Assembly: GCA_042217545.1 (NCBI GenBank)
Contig: JBDGSM010000015.1
Span: 1 to 15,190, forward strand
Direction: 5' to 3'
Length of the DNA stretch: 15,190 nt
DNA from: Candidatus Nanohalobium sp.
GTDB lineage: Archaea > Nanohalarchaeota > Nanosalinia > Nanosalinales > Nanosalinaceae
Below the pieces are notes generated by a model that saw nothing but the letters and a program-made list of their open reading frames with translations, was not told the DNA's origin and ran no database searches. Below, one piece after another: positions 3,739 through 11,700 of this stretch (positions are counted from its first letter, which is position 1; every line of letters starts with the position of its first letter). Both the position numbers and the translations under genes were made by a program.

Positions 3739-4848
3739 TCAGGGATTAATATCGAACTCGAAGTTCTCCTCGATATAGGCCTCGACCTCATCCTCAACGT
3801 CCTCACGCTTTCTCTGATGCTCTTTCAGAAACTCCTCCAGTCTATCCTTCGCGATCTGCTTCAATTCTCCTGAAAGCATCTCGCCGCTTTCATACTCCTC
3901 TCTGATCCTTGCCAGTTCTTCATCGTCCTCTACCAGGTGGTACGCCAGTAGTTCAAATACCATGTCCTCTTCGATATCCGCGCCTTTCTCCCTATGTTCC
4001 TCAAGAGAGTCCTGGCCGCCGGTCTTCGCCTGATCGATCTTCTTCTTAGCATCTTCGATACTGTCGGTCAACGCAATATAGCTCTTCGGATTACTGCTCG
4101 ACATCTTTCCGCCCTGAAGGCCTCTCATGAACTTGTTGTACGTTGAAGCAGGCTTGATGAAGTCCTGGTCCCTGTACTTGCTTGCGACGTCACGTGTCAA
4201 ACGGATATGAGGATCCTGGTCGACACCGACAGGCACTACAACAGGTTTAGGCCCTCCGTTCTCCGGAAACTGAGGCCTGAGAATATCCGCGTACTGAACC
4301 TGGGCTGCCGACATCTTTCCTGGTTCCGCGCTTCCGTAGGTTGCCTCCATCTCGTTCTGTGTAATATATCTTCCAAAAGTTGTAGCTCTCGCCAGGTGGT
4401 TGTTTCCCGCTTTAGACTGGAAGTAGAAATCTACGTTCTCCAGATCGATTCCGAGCGCTACATAGTTCTTCAGGTATTCCTCAACTACAAGTTCCCTGGC
4501 TTCTTCTAGCGACATGTCCCGCGTGTTGTAGGCCTCGATATCTGCTGCAGCTATAGTTACTTCTGCGCCCATCTCCTGGTACATCTTGATCTGGTCGACG
4601 ACGCATTTATGGCCGAAATGGAAGACTCCTGAAGGCATGATACCTGTCATCATCGCAAATTCTTCATCTTCCTCCTTCGCATCCAGGAAGTCGTCAAGGC
4701 CTCTGTGGCCGAAGATGATGCCTCTGCGGATGAACCTGTGATCCGGAAGTCTATCAGCTACTTCCGCGATCGGTTCGATTCCGAACTTCTCCATTTTCTC
4801 AGAGTAGTTTCCGACCTCTACATCGCCCCAGGGATCAATATCTGCCAT
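3739..4848 (-). CDS. trpS: Tryptophanyl-tRNA synthetase (archaeal type)
   Basis: DPW N-terminus, TGIMPSG..HFGH (HIGH), GVDQDPH, KMSSS. ATG 4848 is preceded by the SD GAGGTGA. Confidence 0.95.
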   Translation of the reverse strand: MADIDPWGDVEVGNYSEKMEKFGIEPIAEVADRLPDHRFIRRGIIFGHRGLDDFLDAKEEDEEFAMMTGIMPSGVFHFGHKCVVDQIKMYQEMGAEVTIAAADIEAYNTRDMSLEEARELVVEEYLKNYVALGIDLENVDFYFQSKAGNNHLARATTFGRYITQNEMEATYGSAEPGKMSAAQVQYADILRPQFPENGGPKPVVVPVGVDQDPHIRLTRDVASKYRDQDFIKPASTYNKFMRGLQGGKMSSSNPKSYIALTDSIEDAKKKIDQAKTGGQDSLEEHREKGADIEEDMVFELLAYHLVEDDEELARIREEYESGEMLSGELKQIAKDRLEEFLKEHQRKREDVEDEVEAYIEENFEFDINP

Positions 4849-4858
4849 ACTGAAAACT

Positions 4859-5629
4859 TCACCTCTCACCTTTTAATTCGTTTTCAGGTTTACGACCTCT
4901 GAAACCCAGGATCTCATCGTATCCATCCGTCGACATCAGAACCGGGTAAAAGGCCTCCTCCGCATTCAGTTCTTCATCCTCGTTCTCAGCGTACTTCTCA
5001 CCTTTCTCGACTTTCTCGAAGTTCTGGGCCAGGAACTCATAGTTTCCAGGCACAGCTTCGTACATCTCGAAGATCTCAGGCCTTTCCACAGGTTTCTCGC
5101 GGTCGATAGCGCCAAAGCAGGCCAGGAAGTTCAGTAATACTTCGTAGGCGTTTTCCTCAGCTTCCTCAGTGCCGACCTCGCCCACCTCAACAGAAACTGC
5201 GTCAAGATACTTCTCGACGCTGTCCTTATCAAGCGGGGCGACATCCACAGCTCTATCGACCCCGGGAGCGGTGACAAGATCTTCATCAACTGTATTGACG
5301 AGGCAGAAGGCCTCGTCGAACTCCGTCATGGAGTGTATAGTCAGCGATTTGAGGCCTTCAAGCTCCTCCATAAGTTTTGCGGCGAGTCTCTCCTCGTGGC
5401 TGTTGCTTTCAGGATCTCCGGGGAAGCAGCGGTTCAGATCAGTATCTATGAATCTTTCTCCCTGTTCCCTCGCTTCTTCGTTCGCCACTATGAACTTGAC
5501 AGGCTTCTCCAGCTTGAAATTGCCCTCCAGGAATCTTTCTACCGCTTTACTGCCGCAGACCTCGTCTCCGTGTACTGCTGCGACCACTGCTATCTCAGGT
5601 TCGCCAGGACCTTTCTCCACGACTCTCAA
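4859..5629 (-). CDS. Succinylglutamate desuccinylase/aspartoacylase (M14-like Zn hydrolase), paralogue 1
   Basis: HGDE, DLNRCFPG, IHS, SVEVG. TTG start with SD AGGAGGTGA overlaps the trpA stop. Confidence 0.85.
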   Translation of the reverse strand: MRVVEKGPGEPEIAVVAAVHGDEVCGSKAVERFLEGNFKLEKPVKFIVANEEAREQGERFIDTDLNRCFPGDPESNSHEERLAAKLMEELEGLKSLTIHSMTEFDEAFCLVNTVDEDLVTAPGVDRAVDVAPLDKDSVEKYLDAVSVEVGEVGTEEAEENAYEVLLNFLACFGAIDREKPVERPEIFEMYEAVPGNYEFLAQNFEKVEKGEKYAENEDEELNAEEAFYPVLMSTDGYDEILGFRGRKPENELKGER

Positions 5630-6390
5630 GACCTCTCACCTCCTACGGTTTCAGAGACCTCTGAAGCCAGTTCTTCGACTCCTTCAAGGCCTTCATCAGT
5701 GTATGCATCGATTATAGCGCTTCCCATGATGACGCCGTCCGCTCCTGCGTTCAGGGCTTTCTCTGCGTGTTCGGAGCTGGAGATCCCGAAACCTATGCAT
5801 CTTGGGACGTCGAGGCCTTCCGTTTTCTCCATCAGCTCCTCTGTCTTATCCGAGAAGCTGCTCCTTGCTCCTGTAGTTCCTTTGACTGCGACGATGTAGG
5901 CGAAGCCTTGGGTCAGCTCTCCTATCTCTTCTACACGTTCCTCTGGCGTGTTCTGTCCTATGAGGAAGATCTGGTTCACGTCCGTATCTAACTCGCCGAT
6001 CTCCTCCCCGTACATCTCAGGCGGCATGTCAGGAATGATGAGGCCGTTCACCCCTGCTTCTTCCGCAGCCTCAAAGAAGGCCTCGTATCCGTACCTCCTG
6101 ACTGTATTCGCATACGCAAGCAGAACAATGGGCGTGTCTGGGAACTCCGAGGCAACCTCCAGCACGTCGTCCGCAGTTATATCGTGTTCAAGGGCTTCCA
6201 TATCTGCTTCTGTTATCGTAGGGCCGTCAGCCATCGGATCGCTGAAAGGAACACCTAACTCGACGATATTAGCCCCGCTATCGACCAGAGTCTCTACTAT
6301 CTCCTTCGAGGTTTCTTTGTCCGGGTATCCTCCGACTGTGAAAGGCATGAAGGCCTCTCCATTTTCAAATACTTCTTCAATCGAAGTCAA
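5626..6390 (-). CDS. trpA: Tryptophan synthase alpha subunit
   Basis: [38 protein letters not shown] start with SD GGAGGTGG inside the trpB 3' end. Confidence 0.96.
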
Positions 6391-7531
6391 GGCCTTCCAC
6401 CTCCGCTACAGTATGCATATCCTTGTCTCCACGGCCTGAGAGGTTTACAAGGATCTTGTCGTGTTCATCCGCCAGTTCCTTTGCGAGGGCGACTGCGTGA
6501 GCAGATTCCAGTGCCGGTATGATGCCCTCGGTTTCTGATAGATCGGTGAAGGCCTCCATCGCTGCTTTGTCGTTCACTGCGAAGTAATCTGCTCGTTCCA
6601 TCTCGCTGAGGACGGAGTGTTGCGGTCCTACTCCCGGGTAGTCGAGGCCTGCGGAGACCGATTCTGCTTCCTCTATATTTCCTGAGTCGTCCTGCAGGAA
6701 GTAGGATTTGAATCCCTGGAAGATTCCGACCTCTCCCTGCGATATGCTGGCTGCGTTTCCTTCTTCGTTGCCTCCGGCCTCTGCTCCATACATCGCGACT
6801 TCTTCGTCTTCTACGAATTCGTGGAAGAGGCCTATAGCGTTAGATCCTCCTCCAACACATGCGACAAGTGCATCCGGAAGCTCATCTTCTCTTTCGAGGA
6901 ACTGTTCGCGGGCTTCCTCTCCTATGACCTGCTGGAAGTATCTCACTATCTCCGGGAATGGATCAGGGCCTACTACACTTCCTATCAGGTAATGCGTGTC
7001 TTCGGAGTTCGCGACGTAGTCCTGTATTGCTGCGTTGACCGCATCCTTCAGGGTTTTCGCGCCCTGGTCGACAGGCTTAACTTCCGCACCGCATTTCTCT
7101 ATCCTGAGTGCGTTCATCTTCTGTCTTTCCACGTCTTTCCTGCCCATGTAGATCTCTACCTCCATATCGAAGTAGGCACCGACCATCGCTGTTGCGATAC
7201 CGTGCTGCCCAGCTCCTGTCTCTGCGATGAGTCGTTCCTTTCCCATCTTCTTCGCTAGCAAGGCCTGACCCAATGTATTGTTGATCTTGTGGGCGCCGCC
7301 GTGCAGAAGATCCTCTCTCTTCAGGTAGATCTCTGCTCCGTATCTTTCTGAGAGGTTTTCGGCCCTGTAGACTGAGGTAGGCCTTCCTGCGAACTCTTTC
7401 AGGTGTTTCTCGAACTCTTCTCTGAATTCCTCGCTGTTTCTGGCTTCCTCGAACTCTTCTTCCAGTTCTTCGAGTACCGGTACGAGTAGTTCTGGTACGT
7501 ATTTTCCGCCGAACTCTGTCATCTGTTCCAT
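6377..7531 (-). CDS. trpB: Tryptophan synthase beta subunit (TrpB1 type)
   Basis: [19 protein letters not shown] (PLP Lys), [26 protein letters not shown] 7531 preferred because SD AGGTGA overlaps the upstream TAG; GTG 7543 is an alternative start. Confidence 0.97.
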
Positions 7532-7543
7532 CTTTCCCTTCAC

Positions 7544-7924
7544 CTAGAACTGGTACATCCCAGGGTTTTGTTCCTGTTGGTTTCCTTCCAGCACCTGTTC
7601 AGCTTTCTCCACGAGACCCAGGTTCGAGGCCTGATCCTCAGCCACGGAAGGGAAGTTCTCCGCGTAGAACTCGTTGATAGCTTCCTCAGCGTGCTCCATC
7701 GCGAGGTAGATCTCGGACTCCTGCTCGTCAAGCATCTCCTCGTTCAGTTCCAGGTCTATGAACTCCTCATTCAGAACACCGTCGTAAGGAGCGACTTCAA
7801 CCGTTCCTATCTCCTGGTCGAGGCCTTCGTGGTAGAGAGAAAACTCCTTTGCCCCTTGATACTTTGGGCTTAAAGCTGTACTGTTATCTAGAGGTTTTGC
7901 GTGTATGTTTCCAAAAGCGTCCAC
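7544..7924 (-). CDS. Unknown acidic, Trp-free protein; probably the +1-frame part of a 141-aa product starting at ATG 7970
   Basis: Halophile-like composition; abuts trpB; annotated start is a GTG lying inside the repeated cassette; frame is +1 relative to leader 7884-7970. Confidence 0.7.
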   Translation of the reverse strand: MDAFGNIHAKPLDNSTALSPKYQGAKEFSLYHEGLDQEIGTVEVAPYDGVLNEEFIDLELNEEMLDEQESEIYLAMEHAEEAINEFYAENFPSVAEDQASNLGLVEKAEQVLEGNQQEQNPGMYQF

Positions 7925-8287: not shown

Positions 8288-9049
8288 TTAAAATTCTTTC
8301 TTCTTCCCTTTGAACCCGATCATATCCTCATAACCATCGGTTGACATAAGGACCGGACAGAAACTTTCTGAGGCCTTTTTGACGTTTTCCCTGTTTTCGG
8401 CGTATTTCTCTCCTTTTTCGAGTGGTACGAAGTTCTCCGCCTTGAATTCGTAGTTTTCTCCTTTTGCTCTGTCGTAGACCTCGAAGACTTCTGGTTCCGA
8501 TCGATCGTATTTTTGATCTATTACTCCTTCAGCGGCGAGTAAGTTGAGCAGTATCTGGCAGGTCATCTGCGCTGATTGCGGGCTTGCGTCAGGTCCTGCC
8601 TCGACAGTGACGCCGTTGAGGTGGTTGATCATTCCTCCCTCCACGTAGGAGATCTCGACAAGGTTCTCCATGCAGGTATGTCTCGCCAGTTCGTATGTTT
8701 CCTCCGTAAGGCCTGAAACGATGGCGAAAGGAGTTTTCGGAGACTCAGAGGAATGGAAGTCTATTACTTTGAGGCCTTCAAGCTCCTCCAGAAGCCTTGC
8801 CGCCAATCTCTCCTCATGACTGTCACTATCCCCATCTCCCGGAAATGCATGGTTCAGATCTCTGTCTATGTAGCGTTCTCCTCTGTAGAAGGCTTTTTCG
8901 TTGGCAAGGATGAACTTTACCGGTTCGTTGAGGCCTATCGCTTCTCTCTTGAACCTTTCGAAGGCCTTGAGACCACAGGGTTCGTCTCCGTGGATACAGG
9001 CCACGATAGCTATTTCCGGCTCTCCCTGTCCCAGGACTTCTGTCTTCAT
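8288..9049 (-). CDS. Succinylglutamate desuccinylase/aspartoacylase-family hydrolase, paralogue 2
   Basis: HGDEPCG, DLNHAFPG, DFHS, TVEAG, PVLMSTDGY; alignable end to end with 4859-5629. ATG 9049 has SD CAGGTGAG. Confidence 0.88.
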   Translation of the reverse strand: MKTEVLGQGEPEIAIVACIHGDEPCGLKAFERFKREAIGLNEPVKFILANEKAFYRGERYIDRDLNHAFPGDGDSDSHEERLAARLLEELEGLKVIDFHSSESPKTPFAIVSGLTEETYELARHTCMENLVEISYVEGGMINHLNGVTVEAGPDASPQSAQMTCQILLNLLAAEGVIDQKYDRSEPEVFEVYDRAKGENYEFKAENFVPLEKGEKYAENRENVKKASESFCPVLMSTDGYEDMIGFKGKKKEF

Positions 9050-9144
9050 TTTCTCACCTGTTGAAGGCCTTTTCCTGGTTTTCGAGATGTTTCGAGGATG
9101 TGAAGTCGTTTTTGTGGTAGTTGGATGTTTGTTCACCTTGTAGT

Positions 9145-9170
9145 GCAGAGCTCAGGATAGTTGGCTCTGC
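9145..9170 (-). promoter_or_regulatory. Stem-loop directly after micropeptide A
   Basis: GCAGAGC/GCTCTGC 7-bp stem with a 12-nt loop; overlaps the palindrome GCTTCTAGAAGC (9169-9180). Confidence 0.45.
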
Positions 9171-9172
9171 TT

Positions 9173-9250
9173 CTAGAAGCTATAGAAATAGTAGAATCCT
9201 GTAAAATGTGAGAAACTCAAAACGAGCTGATATAGAACTGGACGAGTCAT
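9173..9250 (-). CDS. Aromatic-rich micropeptide A, 25 aa: MTRPVLYQLVLSFSHFTGFYYFYSF
   Basis: AAGGAGG upstream; ATGA overlap with the preceding small ORF; homologous to 11575-11643. Confidence 0.6.
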   Translation of the reverse strand: MTRPVLYQLVLSFSHFTGFYYFYSF

Positions 9251-9318
9251 AGTATATCTCGGGCCTCCTTGATCGCTTTCTCTTTACGTTCTGGATCCGA
9301 ATCCATTTTCCCGATCAT
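9247..9318 (-). CDS. Small ORF or gene remnant MIGKMDSDPERKEKAIKEARDIL
   Basis: Protein-like charged helix; its TGA overlaps the ATG of micropeptide A. Confidence 0.3.
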   Translation of the reverse strand: MIGKMDSDPERKEKAIKEARDIL

Positions 9319-9340
9319 TATATCGCCGTAGAAGGCCTTC

Positions 9341-10267
9341 CTACTGTTTCAGGTCTAGCTCTTCTCTGGCCAGTTCTACTGCTTCTTCATAGCTATTCAG
9401 GGCCTTCACCGTGTCCTTCGGTGAGTGATAGATGTCCAGTACCTCGTGGTACTCCGATGCCACGAACTTGACTTTGTCCTCGTAGCCCTCAGTATTCAGG
9501 ACTATAGCTTTCTCCACAATCTCAGGATTTTCTATGACTTTCTGGGAGTTTCTCCCCAGCGAATCTGCAAGGAAGATTTCTTCTGCTCCCTTTATCTGCT
9601 CGATGTATTCATCCTCGAACCTTCTGTAACCGTAGCAGTGGTACGGTTTTTCCTGTGATATTTCCTCAGCTCCAGCAAATACTACAAGGTTCTCCTCCAG
9701 GTCCAGTTCGTCCAGTAACTCAATAATGAGGCTGACCGTGAACCCATTGTCAATGAAGCCTCCCCAGGTGCTGTCGTAATGAGTCAAAATTATCCTGTCG
9801 GGATCCTCCTCGTTTCCTACAAGGATATTCCGGGATTCATGGCTGACCCATTCGACCTCGAGATAACCCTCGACTTCATCCGCTCTTAATACTTTTTCCA
9901 CGTCTTCGGGGCTGATGGCGACTGAAGGAGCCTCGTAGAAGTTCGGAACTGAAATTCCGTCCGCATACGGGTTAAAGTTGATGTTAGGCCTGTTCATAGA
10001 TCCCTGACCGTTCAAGATAGAGTTTACCAGGGCCTTGGACTCGATCTTTCCAGATTCAAGGCCTGAAGGCAGACAACGAATCTCTTCTCCGTCGGCTTCC
10101 AGACCCCAGTCCCTGAAATCCGGTACGAGTATCTGAAAGGCCTGAGTACTGTAATCATATTCAGATATCTCTTCCTCTATCAGTTCCGCTGCTTTTTTCT
10201 CGTCTTCGAGCTGTCTCGGGGCCAGATCCGCGAGCCTTGAGGCCCTCTGTACAACTTCTTCTTTCAT
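9341..10267 (-). CDS. M28-family Zn metallopeptidase
   Basis: THYDS, IDN, AEE, ADSLG and YHSPKD metal-ligand motifs. Confidence 0.85.
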   Translation of the reverse strand: MKEEVVQRASRLADLAPRQLEDEKKAAELIEEEISEYDYSTQAFQILVPDFRDWGLEADGEEIRCLPSGLESGKIESKALVNSILNGQGSMNRPNINFNPYADGISVPNFYEAPSVAISPEDVEKVLRADEVEGYLEVEWVSHESRNILVGNEEDPDRIILTHYDSTWGGFIDNGFTVSLIIELLDELDLEENLVVFAGAEEISQEKPYHCYGYRRFEDEYIEQIKGAEEIFLADSLGRNSQKVIENPEIVEKAIVLNTEGYEDKVKFVASEYHEVLDIYHSPKDTVKALNSYEEAVELAREELDLKQ

Positions 10268-10276
10268 AGTTTTTAT

Positions 10277-11413
10277 TCACCTCAGAGCCATGTTAAGGAT
10301 TTGCTCTGTGACGTCCTCGAAACTCTCGGACCTCAGATCAGCTGACTGGATCTCTTCCCTTTTCTGCTGTGAAGGGTAGAGATTGAGGACCATGCCGTTT
10401 TTCTTGAGGCTTGAAGAGCCCCCGAACCTTGTGTCGTTCAGTTCCTCCATCACATAGCTGGGAACTCTGGCGTGGTAATCATCCTCAGAAGATACATCTA
10501 TGAACGGGAAGCTTTCGAGGCCTTCCTGATGAGCCTGTCTCTCAAGCTCATCAGTATTCTCTGTCCTGAACTTTCCGTTGTCAAGGCCTCTGAGCATGTA
10601 ACCGACATCCTGATGAACTGCTGAGGGAAAGACCAGCGTTTCATAGTTGACCTCCGGAGGGAGTATACCCTCCTGTGAGGCCTCTTCCGTGGATAAAGTG
10701 ATGTCTCTGCGGTCGTCCAGCGATTCGTAGGTCTCTGTCCTCGGATCGTACTTCATTCCTACAATTTTGCCATCTGCGTCCTCGTATCCCAGGACTTCAG
10801 GCTCTTGTCCATGTTTAATCATCTGGTCTATCATGCTTCTCTGGATCTCTGTGAAGTCTCCTCTCGTCTGGACCAGAGGCGTCTCCAGGCTATCGTGGAG
10901 TTCTCTCAGGTTCGAGGCCTCGGCATCCGCTCCAAGCATCTCCTCTACGATCTGATCCGAGTTATCTCTCAAATTAACTTCGTGGGAACCGACGCTGTAA
11001 CCGTCCTGAATATCAGTCACCTGAGTAGACCAGAGGCCTTCCTCGGTAGAAACCACTGGCATCGCGTATCCTCTCTTCTCCGCGTTCCGCCCGTACATCT
11101 TATCTGTCAGAGGAGCACCTACGACGCTGTAATTTTCTATTTCTCCCTGTTCCTGCAGTTGATCACCTAACATACTTGCTACTTCCTGCATAGATATCTG
11201 CTCGACTGTCGAAGCCGGCTGCTGACGCGGGATAACGAAAGTGTAATCATCTTCAGCGTCCATCACCCCCGCATCCTCATAGGCCTCACGCAACCAATCT
11301 GCATCAACCTCTTCAAGGCCTATGTTATCGTAGTGCTGATCTATGAGAGCTTCTACATCTTCCTGTTTTGACTGTTCGTAGACCTGTTCGAACTCTGAGG
11401 AGTTTCTTATCAT
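10277..11413 (-). CDS. Hypothetical acidic protein, 378 aa
   Basis: Long ORF with halophilic composition, 9 nt from the M28 gene; no family recognised. Confidence 0.8.
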   Translation of the reverse strand: MIRNSSEFEQVYEQSKQEDVEALIDQHYDNIGLEEVDADWLREAYEDAGVMDAEDDYTFVIPRQQPASTVEQISMQEVASMLGDQLQEQGEIENYSVVGAPLTDKMYGRNAEKRGYAMPVVSTEEGLWSTQVTDIQDGYSVGSHEVNLRDNSDQIVEEMLGADAEASNLRELHDSLETPLVQTRGDFTEIQRSMIDQMIKHGQEPEVLGYEDADGKIVGMKYDPRTETYESLDDRRDITLSTEEASQEGILPPEVNYETLVFPSAVHQDVGYMLRGLDNGKFRTENTDELERQAHQEGLESFPFIDVSSEDDYHARVPSYVMEELNDTRFGGSSSLKKNGMVLNLYPSQQKREEIQSADLRSESFEDVTEQILNMALR

Positions 11414-11520
11414 GTATGATCAACTTGAAGACCTTTACGTATCAGAGTCTCTCTTGAAGATTTTTTGCATTGTTTTTGCGTACGTGATGCGTTGAAGGTA
11501 TAGTCTTGTGTGTTAAACAT
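11410..11520 (-). CDS. Small basic ORF, 36 aa: MFNTQDYTFNASRTQKQCKKSSRETLIRKGLQVDHT
   Basis: Strong SD CAGGTGA 5 nt before the ATG; ATGA overlap with the 378-aa gene, which has no clear SD of its own. Confidence 0.55.
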   Translation of the reverse strand: MFNTQDYTFNASRTQKQCKKSSRETLIRKGLQVDHT

Positions 11521-11574
11521 AGATATCACCTGTTAAGATTCGAAGCCAACCGTGGAAAACTTATGGTTCACTTC

Positions 11575-11643
11575 TCAGAACATAAAGCTATAGAAATAGC
11601 TGCCGCTAAACCAGAAACCTGTAGAATTCCGGAAACCGTTCAT
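11575..11643 (-). CDS. Aromatic-rich micropeptide B, 22 aa: MNGFRNSTGFWFSGSYFYSFMF
   Basis: First ATG after a BRE/TATA; 9 of 22 residues are F/Y/W; homologous to micropeptide A. Confidence 0.6.
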   Translation of the reverse strand: MNGFRNSTGFWFSGSYFYSFMF

Positions 11644-11685
11644 GTTCTCTGGCGCGGACACAGTAAACTATCCAGTGAGCAACTG

Positions 11686-11700
11686 TTTTTTAACTTTCGG
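11686..11700 (-). promoter_or_regulatory. BRE/TATA (CCGAAAG-TTAAAAAA)
   Basis: Consensus-like archaeal promoter about 43 nt upstream of ATG 11643. Confidence 0.55.

Follow-up and report, generated by a model that had tools for sequence, protein, structure and literature searches.

Two short open reading frames (ORFs) on the minus strand of a nanohaloarchaeal contig encode peptides that close on a run of Tyr and Phe residues, and the question that this locus raises is whether such frames are read by the ribosome as regulatory leaders, yield a small product of their own or are not translated at all. The window, meaning the whole 15,190-nucleotide (nt) stretch that was analysed, is contig C7 (GenBank JBDGSM010000015.1) of the Candidatus Nanohalobium genome referred to here as G000 (GCA_042217545.1; 1.03 Mb, 82 contigs, 92% complete), whose nearest named relatives, going by one protein family, are Nanosalina J07AB43, SG9 and Ca. 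Nanohalococcus occultus, all of the Nanohaloarchaea. Comparison of the two short ORFs, sORF1-A and sORF1-B, with those of related genomes indicates that the regions around them, A and B, are best read as two instances of a nanohaloarchaeal 5' leader cassette, a portable unit in which a short ORF with an aromatic tail is followed by a hairpin, a Shine-Dalgarno (SD) sequence and an A/C-rich spacer. It is suggested, with a probability of roughly 0.37, that this cassette is a translated, cis-acting leader peptide that reports the supply of aromatic aminoacyl-tRNA.

Short reading frames with a common aromatic tail

sORF1-A (9173-9250, minus strand) has 25 codons (MTRPVLYQLVLSFSHFTGFYYFYSF) and carries the core TAC TAT TTC TAT AGC TTC at 9176-9193. 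sORF1-B can be read from an ATG (11575-11643, minus strand; MNGFRNSTGFWFSGSYFYSFMF); alignment with orthologues makes the GTG at 11661 the most likely true start, giving 28 codons (11575-11661; MSAPENMNGFRNSTGFWFSGSYFYSFMF) as in its two nearest orthologues. The first-pass annotation ascribed nine aromatic and no acidic residues to each peptide, and a direct count agrees for A and for the ATG version of B, the GTG version holding one Glu; the proteome is, as had been stated, highly acidic, with 20.5% Asp and Glu versus 11.1% Lys and Arg over 315 long ORFs of G000. An exact 15-mer, CTATTTCTATAGCTT, is present in both regions (two matches in the window versus 0.01 expected; two were reached in 0 of 200 shuffles), and this, together with the related ORFs of other genomes, bears out the proposed homology of A and B. 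Genome-wide (1.03 Mb, at most one mismatch) the 15-mer matches at A and B only, a count that by itself is not taken as evidence because a backwards control pattern also matched twice. Aromatic-rich tails as such are not rare, at least 6 aromatic residues being found among the last 12 in 74 of 45,825 stop-to-stop frames.

Alignment of the two ORFs confirms a 12-nt indel in frame, and B extends two codons beyond the end of A before its stop. The codons for YFYS are identical at the nucleotide level; elsewhere in the shared blocks, where the differences had been described as synonymous, GGA/GGT within T-G-F and TTC/TTT at the Phe after YFYS are so, whereas TAC/TGG exchanges Tyr for Trp. Two palindromic features had also been pointed out. 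A perfect 12-nt palindrome, GCTTCTAGAAGC (9169-9180), is indeed centred on the stop of sORF1-A, overlapping the first bases of the hairpin that follows, and is peculiar to A, being found neither in B nor in the orthologues. The inverted repeat CTAT-TTCT-ATAG is not conserved in the orthologues, whereas start, frame and stop are retained in all 11 copies of the cassette described below, the reverse of the pattern that the first-pass annotation had set as a refutation of its reading. These comparisons support the view that A and B are homologous and have evolved as reading frames, not as an inverted repeat.

A DNA search with region A in 41 genomes matched the window alone; DNA between genes has diverged too far, and further copies were therefore sought first through neighbouring proteins and later with a peptide profile. 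Of 41 relatives 6 encode the 378-amino-acid (aa) protein that lies behind B, and at E ≤ 1e-10 so do 7 of the 50 genomes of the nanohaloarchaeal family. Every close homologue (47-79% identity) has a homologous short ORF of 23-28 codons at the same upstream place, namely in G056 (MVAPERSMDFRISTAFWFSGSYFSSFTF), G001 (MVARGLHNSENTLKALGFSDSFFYNFMF), G015 (MLQNLVSKAAFDFSLSWSYFYWF), G065 (MLQKFSIEDFKLDFSWSFYYRFFF) and on metagenome contig L038 (MAVGREFNAQRRVSEGNSRFYSFMF). The copy in G021 (MFDCQKMRSLFFSGSFSYFYYFM) was found by scanning AstE-like loci, and those in G058 (E 2e-4; MAVGIGFNAQRHIHSGNSRFYSFTF), G020 (E 0.012; MLNQRSDNFRFVFSGSYFYNF) and G022 (E 0.005; MVNSCKSNIFRFIDSFSYFYYF) by a profile built from 8 cassette peptides and run on whole-genome six-frame translations. 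On the translation of G000 this profile scored B at 51.9 bits and A at 26.9 and 25.9 bits, both being in its training set, and the best non-member frame at 11.2 bits. The copies in G058, G020 and G022 each show a promoter box, a post-stop hairpin or its equivalent, and an SD, and these features count as independent support because the peptide profile does not encode them. Plain chance or an artefact of ORF calling is rejected in view of this independent recovery of cassettes.

The 11 copies, two of them in G000, come from 9 of the 50 family genomes (7 genera) and one metagenome contig and make up about seven independent lineages; the peptide profile gave no accepted match in 20 genomes from other families of the class. 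The first-pass annotation had proposed listing the genes downstream of related short ORFs, and among the 11 cassettes this yields five kinds of first gene: six copies have a member of the 378-aa family, G021 and G058 one of a 430-aa family, G022 a 394-aa protein, G020 a GCS2 carboxylate-amine ligase and A an AstE-like protein, so that an identical kind of leader stands before unrelated operons. Further profile matches in G054, G016, G064 and G029 were judged spurious on inspection, and two weak ones (G000:C47, E 0.32; G001:539768, E 0.43) were left out of the 11. A metagenome scan with the 378-aa alignment gave two loci, one identical to G056. Seven of the peptides were looked up in a collection of 15 billion proteins and none was present, which shows only that they are unannotated.

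Across the 11 cassettes the conserved part of the ORF, which is 21-28 codons long, is the tail only, written AGC TAT TTC TAT NNN TTY (S-Y-F-Y-x-F). In B the tail reads AGC TAT TTC TAT AGC TTT ATG TTC (S-Y-F-Y-S-F-M-F; 11578-11601, minus strand), its core codons being those found in all 11. The free position is one whole codon, for S, N, W, R or Y, and the core of G015 is written TAC TTT TAC, three successive synonymous changes. Each six-codon core holds 3-5 codons for Tyr, Phe or Trp (A 4, B 3), and most copies have further aromatic codons before or after it. The core Tyr codons are TAT in 15 and TAC in 4 of 19 cases, versus 21% TAT among the Tyr codons of the long ORFs of G000. Between motif and stop lie 0 residues in 4 copies, 1 in 1 and 2 in 6, and the stop itself is TGA in 4, TAA in 4 and TAG in 3; peptides A and G020 both end in Y-F-Y-S/N-F directly before it.

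Contigs from four DNA runs, set against the window, include a 4-nt deletion in the loop of the hairpin behind sORF1-B in a related strain and a synonymous third-position change in codon 3 of sORF1-B. In run X3 the contig of a relative runs along the window across both genes behind B before departing from it at 9331, so that this relative is taken to be without cassette A; region A is also missing from G001. A low-depth contig of 213 nt in run X2 spans 9120-9233, the tail and hairpin of A, with 10 differences and 1 gap.

Promoter box, helices and spacer

Upstream of sORF1-B lies a box that resembles a B recognition element and TATA box (BRE/TATA-like; CCGAAAG TTAAAAAA; 11686-11700, minus strand), whose 8-mer ends 24 nt before the GTG; G001 and G056 have the same box at the same distance. 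Upstream DNA is available for 10 cassettes, and 9 of these have an A/T-rich 8-mer (at least 7 of 8) whose end lies 19-27 nt upstream of the start, at 23-25 nt in 7 of them; the start is ATG or GTG in all 11. Among 534 long ORFs of G000 as a whole, A/T-rich 8-mers are most frequent 20-25 nt before the ATG (26% at 23 nt versus about 5% at 35-70 nt), and because the box distance matches this genome-wide peak the short ORFs are placed like the leaderless genes of G000. From this placement we infer that the short ORF is leaderless in B and its orthologues. Cassette A does not fit. Its TATA-like box is weak (6 of 8 A/T, 32 nt upstream of the start), a GGAGG lies at 9264-9268 (minus strand), 13 nt upstream of the ATG, and this ATG overlaps the TGA stop of a highly charged 23-codon ORF (9247-9318, minus strand; MIGKMDSDPERKEKAIKEARDIL); on these grounds sORF1-A is probably read from a longer transcript, and the charged ORF before it could be either a coupling ORF or what is left of a gene.

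Two helices frame the short ORF in the predicted RNA. In 9 of 11 cassettes the first 18 nt, the start codon among them, form a helix, P1, with a stretch whose end lies 11-23 nt upstream of the stop; the energies of P1 range from -11.7 to -21.4 kcal/mol and were equalled by 0-10 of 200 shuffles. In B the 5' strand (11645-11661, minus strand), start codon included, pairs with the codons for F-W-F-S-G-S (11598-11618, minus strand) in a duplex of -18.4 kcal/mol that was reached by 10 of 200 shuffles. The sequences of P1 vary by lineage (GCGCCAGA/UCUGG..GCG, GGCUGUUG/CAACAGCC, GCUCCAG/CUGGAGC), and the N-terminal halves of the peptides would be unrelated to one another because P1 pairing shapes that part. 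When the short ORF is folded alone, its last 15-25 nt are unpaired in 8 of 10 cassettes. A local AGCTAT/ATAGCT helix covers the first core codons in B and in G056 and is not conserved in other orthologues; folds of the whole leader add long-range pairs, and these are not conserved either.

The second helix, P3, is a hairpin after the stop. In B (11542-11574, minus strand) it follows the stop directly, with 9 base pairs (bp) and -11.4 kcal/mol. In A (9145-9170, minus strand) it begins 2 nt after the stop; the 7-bp hairpin GCAGAGC/GCTCTGC that had been reported there is present, and in the minimum free energy fold it becomes a helix of 9 bp with a bulge at -13.1 kcal/mol. P3 is found in 10 of the 11 cassettes (6-11 bp, -5.9 to -16.2 kcal/mol), beginning 0-5 nt past the stop and ending 5-12 nt before an AGGTG, and its arms differ compensatorily between lineages, for example GAAGUGAAC/GUUCACUUC versus AAGCAGACCG/CGGUUUGCUU. 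Instead of such a hairpin, G020 shows pairing of the segment after the stop with the 5' end of the ORF (-12.8 kcal/mol; 0 of 200 shuffles). Alignments of the leaders by MAFFT did not align the hairpin arms, and the helix comparisons were therefore scripted, with no covariance model built. A search of the whole window against Rfam at E ≤ 1 gave no family match to the cassette and two chance-level matches elsewhere in the window.

AGGTG occupies the SD position in all 11 cassettes. The SD of B, AACAGGTGAT, lies at 11525-11534 (minus strand), 10 nt past P3; that of A is an SD-like AAGGTGA (AGGTG at 9134-9138), which with the A/C-rich spacer (A 45%, C 29%, G 13%) takes up 9050-9138 of the minus strand. 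The spacers of the 11 cassettes are A/C-rich, 48-113 nt long and contain 8-22% G (compared for A and B of the window and for loci L034, L005, L038, L046, L006, L035, L039 and L047), and most are open in the frame whose stop overlaps the start of the main gene (ATGA and similar), encoding MFNTQDYTFNAS in B and MSNTQDYTFDAS in G056. In B this putative sORF2 runs from an ATG at 11520 over 36 codons (MFNTQDYT...; 11410-11520, minus strand) to a TGA that overlaps the ATG of the 378-aa gene. Two frames are open through the spacer of A, that of the AstE-like gene (from GTG 9136) and the one whose TGA overlaps the ATG at 9049, and in G015, G020, G021 and G065 the spacer frame would need an ATC start. 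The open frame does not settle whether sORF2 is translated, because a G-poor sequence has few stops anyway, and the spacer may hold a coupling ORF or be no more than an unstructured leader.

A proposed ribosome-read leader and its rivals

The observed anatomy, conservation and portability of the cassette point to a cis-acting leader rather than to a protein product, given the leaderless placement, the conservation that is limited to Tyr and Phe positions written in a rare codon, the N-terminal half that appears dictated by RNA, the packing of stop, hairpin and SD, and the occurrence of one leader before different operons. We infer from them that the short ORF is translated and that Phe/Tyr is the signal sensed. 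A pioneer ribosome would load on the nascent 5' AUG before P1 forms; P1, once formed, would lock the AUG, so that translation of the short ORF would be limited to ribosomes loading during RNA synthesis. The speed of transit over the Tyr and Phe codons would report the supply of charged aromatic tRNA, a ribosome held in the tail covering the 3' strand of P1 and the U-rich tail and a ribosome arriving at the stop codon melting P3. Its position might then be read out in one of two ways, by gating access of FttA/aCPSF1 to the naked U-rich tail or by gating re-initiation at the SD, 26-44 nt past the stop. FttA/aCPSF1 is encoded in G000, and its use of U-tracts in termination is reported (PMC8716108, PMC7515710). 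The operons under control, which could be exerted in either direction, would be those for amino-acid ligase-like and peptidase-like proteins and for Trp salvage and charging (trpBA, trpS). The fuller proposal, that the cassette is the archaeal 'ribulon' of a DPANN symbiont, in which the position of the pioneer ribosome on the tail decides operon expression co-transcriptionally through FttA/aCPSF1 or re-initiation, is doubtful.

Leader-peptide control is textbook knowledge for bacteria. A full-text literature search found no description of it in Nanohaloarchaea, and no archaeal leader-peptide attenuator is described among the matches listed in broader literature searches. The closest described system, by analogy, appears to be that of the mycobacterial polycysteine attenuators, leaderless short ORFs that make up the 'Cys ribulon' (Canestrari et al., bioRxiv 10.1101/834739). 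There a polycistronic mRNA has a leaderless short ORF as its first cistron, as is predicted for the cassette, a codon cluster serves one amino-acid class, several unrelated operons carry one kind of leader, and structured RNA separates the short ORF from the ribosome-binding site that follows. The cassette differs in belonging to a DPANN archaeon, in the fixed order of its aromatic codons, in a post-stop hairpin that leaves the SD free in 10 of 11 copies, with no duplex found that would sequester the ribosome-binding site, in an extra helix that pairs the 5' AUG, and in its ligase-like, peptidase-like and Trp-salvage targets.

The first-pass annotation had invoked pheL-type attenuation. The bacterial leader-peptide transcription attenuators of the pheL (PMC3082878) and trpL type resemble the cassette in having a short leader ORF that ends in a run of aromatic codons, in conserving the regulatory codons alone and in the hairpin after the stop. 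Unlike them, the cassette has an archaeal promoter, a predicted leaderless mRNA and targets outside Phe/Tyr biosynthesis, and it offered no U-tract terminator, no antiterminator alternative and no conserved antiterminator or anti-sequestor pairing, so that this part of the suggestion was not borne out. Termination in archaea relies on oligo-U and FttA and not on hairpin terminators. The cassette is accordingly filed as an element that would work like a leader-peptide switch yet departs from the bacterial families in terminator and antiterminator.

Several observations weigh against a leader that gauges aromatic tRNA. The third positions of the core are strongly conserved (AGC 9 of 11, TTC 9 of 11, TAT 9 of 11), which also fits a constraint at the nucleotide level, and openness of the frame alone is weak evidence because frame +1 is likewise free of stops in 6 of 11 cassettes. 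The fixed order S-Y-F-Y-x-F exceeds what a codon counter needs; Trp codons are not conserved in the tail, though the trp genes are the aromatic link; the genes behind the cassettes are not classical Phe/Tyr supply genes, and the prephenate dehydratase operon of contig C26 has no aromatic short ORF. As to the RNA, P1 is missing from A and weak in G020, P3 is individually significant (at most 10 of 200 shuffles) in just 6 of 10 cassettes tested, and the SD lies outside P3 in 10 of 11 cassettes, G020 being the only one in which a helix includes it. No U-tract follows P3 in any copy, the longest run being TTTT (G058). No conserved alternative pairing was found between the strands of P1, the first 18 nt or the tail and the SD region or main start, nor any duplex of tail and SD; these were sought with RNAduplex as simple duplexes only and were no better than shuffles in most copies.

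Three other explanations have to be considered. That the short ORF is the first gene of its operon, with a 21-28-residue product that acts in trans or serves the neighbouring ligase-like and peptidase-like enzymes as substrate or scaffold, including the carboxypeptidase substrate put forward in the first-pass annotation and a peptide whose C-terminus is a scaffold for amino acids, is unlikely, although the coding evidence given above applies to it equally. The genes downstream would suit a peptide that is processed, since two kinds of carboxylate-amine or aminoacyl-tRNA-synthetase-like ligases (GCS2 and the BshC/LysRS-like fold) and two metallopeptidase folds (M28 and AstE/AspA) could extend or trim its C-terminus. 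No one enzyme family accompanies the peptide, however, the five first genes showing no shared family by sequence, and the N-terminal half is not conserved as peptide, co-varies as RNA and contains no conserved recognition sequence. The substrate idea is weakened by both points, that the first downstream gene differs among copies and that the N-terminal half is unconserved. Rare codons and a stop, P3 and SD packed as tightly as is typical of leaders also speak against a product, and neither a signal sequence nor a transmembrane segment could be read from the peptide sequences.

Nascent-chain arrest, in which S-Y-F-Y-x-F would act in the exit tunnel, with or without a ligand, and stall the ribosome at or near the stop, so that P3 is kept open, the RNA shielded from the termination factor and the operon on, is quite unlikely. 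Conservation is concentrated in the last 6-8 residues by the stop, in fixed order, and leaves the rest of the peptide free; P3 begins 0-5 nt past the stop, within the stretch that a terminating ribosome covers; the enzymes targeted are of catabolic or ligase type and not biosynthetic, and the genome encodes FttA. Bacterial analogues exist in TnaC (PMC8429421, PMC8450073) and SpeFL (bioRxiv 10.1101/604074), which share with the cassette a conserved C-terminal motif adjoining the stop and catabolic-type genes downstream, a factor-dependent terminator being plausible here with FttA in place of Rho. The cassette is unlike both in that the distance from motif to stop varies over 0-2 residues and all three stop codons are in use, and in that no ligand is known and no rut-like site definable. 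Termination-arrest peptides known so far depend on exact spacing, and the preference for the rare TAT fits decoding speed, not peptide chemistry.

It is also conceivable that the element is not translated, the frame being incidental to an RNA motif or an embedded promoter: the helices would flank a U-rich stretch bound by Lsm/SmAP or FttA, or TTTCTATAGCTTTATG would be a TATA box. Such an element would account for the nucleotide conservation of the core, third positions included, for the co-variation of P1 and P3, for the unpaired U-rich tail, for the open frame +1 and for the 15-mer common to A and B in one genome, which is better conserved than among the orthologues of B. This scenario is nevertheless distinctly improbable, given that ATG or GTG stands in all 11 copies at the TATA distance where the protein genes of G000 start, that the stop always lies 0-5 nt before P3, and that variation is limited to one whole codon and, in G015, to the synonymous triple change. 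Furthermore, a TATA box at the tail puts the start of the transcript inside P3 and leaves P1, P3 and the upstream TATA box unexplained, the tail of G015, TACTTTTACTGGTTC, makes a poor TATA box, and the Rfam search returned no family for the cassette.

If the cassette is indeed a ribosome-read leader, it would represent leader-peptide attenuation in archaea, tied to the archaeal termination machinery and to the salvage of host nutrients rather than to biosynthesis. Archaeal ribosomes would then serve as metabolite gauges, linking transcription-translation coupling and FttA-dependent termination, both current open topics, and there would be a handle on how amino-acid salvage is tuned in a host-dependent archaeon with a 1-Mb genome. 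It would also mark the nanohaloarchaea-only 378-aa (BshC/LysRS-like), 430-aa and 394-aa genes as one co-regulated group. Even if the peptide is a product and not a sensor, the short ORFs are a conserved, unannotated gene family, and the existence of cultured relatives makes the prediction testable.

Genes behind the cassettes

In the window the genes lie on the minus strand in the order PGK (13051-11741), cassette B, 378-aa gene (10277-11413), 308-aa gene (9341-10267), cassette A, AstE/AspA-like Zn hydrolase gene no. 1 (8288-9049), 126-aa ORF (7544-7924), trpB (6377-7543), trpA (5626-6390), AstE-like gene no. 2 (4859-5629) and trpS (3739-4869). Across genomes the gene string at this locus varies on the pattern PGK - [378 aa - M28] - [GCS2] - AstE-like - [trpBA] - trpS, and the PGK gene directly precedes seven cassettes despite differing downstream genes. 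In G015 gaps are at most 22 nt throughout the string from the short ORF to trpS, and the gene string behind the cassette includes trpS, trpBA or both in G000 (A), G015, G001 and G020. The first-pass annotation placed both short ORFs upstream of hydrolase genes, which holds for A, before the AstE/AspA-like gene, and only indirectly for B, where the first gene is BshC/class I LysRS-like and an M28-fold peptidase comes second.

The 378-aa protein has no sequence match in Pfam, NCBIfam or PDB and nothing in the Protein Atlas, and its family has been seen in nanohaloarchaea-like sequences only (17 homologues; 14 representatives in a set of 1.84 billion proteins); the database entry that matches the G015 member best is named Candidatus Nanohalococcus occultus. 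An AlphaFold2 (AF2) model reached a predicted local distance difference test score (pLDDT) of 93.2 and a predicted template modelling score (pTM) of 0.91 from a widened alignment, which also took in the 430-aa and 394-aa proteins although these gave no significant hhalign match to the family; a narrower alignment of 18 close sequences gave a pLDDT of 47.7 and was not usable. Against PDB the model matched 4wbd (Foldseek E 7.9e-5), the chain 4wbd_A, a BshC, aligning over 303 residues (Z 12.6, root-mean-square deviation (rmsd) 4.8), and the class I LysRS 1irx_B over 252 (Z 10.8, rmsd 4.1), the following match having Z 5.1. By its model the 378-aa protein is of an aminoacyl-tRNA-synthetase-like, ligase-type fold, a likeness of fold alone and not of function. 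Comparison of its family by hhalign with the 430-aa and 394-aa proteins gave no significant match, with a faint RQ..TVE resemblance in the 394-aa protein. The 308-aa protein, with no Pfam match, resembles M28 peptidases in fold (structure TM 0.86 to PA/M28 clusters, feature score 0.96).

The first AstE/AspA-like gene behind A has its own SD, ACAGGTGAG, and belongs to PF24827 (1.9e-13). Its best relatives are in G020 (55-60% identity), where the short ORF is followed in one operon by GCS2 and AstE-like genes and the contig carries trpA further on; because of this similarity and of the shared ending of the two peptides, the G020 operon looks like the source type of A. The 126-aa ORF that follows has no Pfam or NCBIfam match, whereas trpB (TIGR00263, 2.2e-171; PF00291), trpA (TIGR00262, 3.1e-69) and trpS (TrpRS models) are identified by family models. 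That trpBA are flanked by two AstE/AspA-like paralogues, next to trpS, and that trpA occurs in 6 of the 50 family genomes suggests that some nanohaloarchaea may salvage Trp from indole or indole-glycerol-phosphate. The prephenate dehydratase gene of G000 (PF00800, 2.8e-52) is in an operon at C26:46077-49500 (minus strand) with a box, TTAAATTA, 22 nt before its ATG, and is leaderless; its neighbours, from their translations, read as a chorismate mutase, an aminotransferase and an NAD-binding dehydrogenase-like protein. The shikimate route looks incomplete, since chorismate synthase (PF01264) was not found in the 92% complete genome.

A descriptor scan of G000 for an aromatic tail, hairpin and SD gave 15 matches including A and B. 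Three of the other 13 (on C9, C68 and C73) were inspected and set aside, two being antisense to genes and one lying upstream of a tRNA gene. In the last (C68:7700-7771, plus strand) TTCTACAGGCTACTTTTTCTATAC resembles TTCTACAGGTTTCT...TTTCTATAG of B, and a 16-codon frame ends in NSTGYFFYTDLTYS; the resemblance is possibly due to chance.

Distant homologues of the 378-aa protein (27-31% identity) at L010 (G004:C57), L036 (G051:C81) and L008 (G040:C12) have different short ORFs of leaderless type upstream. Two of these, MRPQTTLNSQSKGEYFIEGDCFFQGGRVLELAN and MSSMDVSGPQKGERFIVPGRFFYSQGGCVLASFAWF, are related to each other, and that of G040 is hydrophobic. A CA-rich ORF (MTQHHTTPPY..., MTPQHRNTTH..., MTRHNTTTPRY...) is present in each of the three leaders as well, its stop overlapping the start of the main gene, and on this comparison the architecture of the leader may be older than the aromatic motif.

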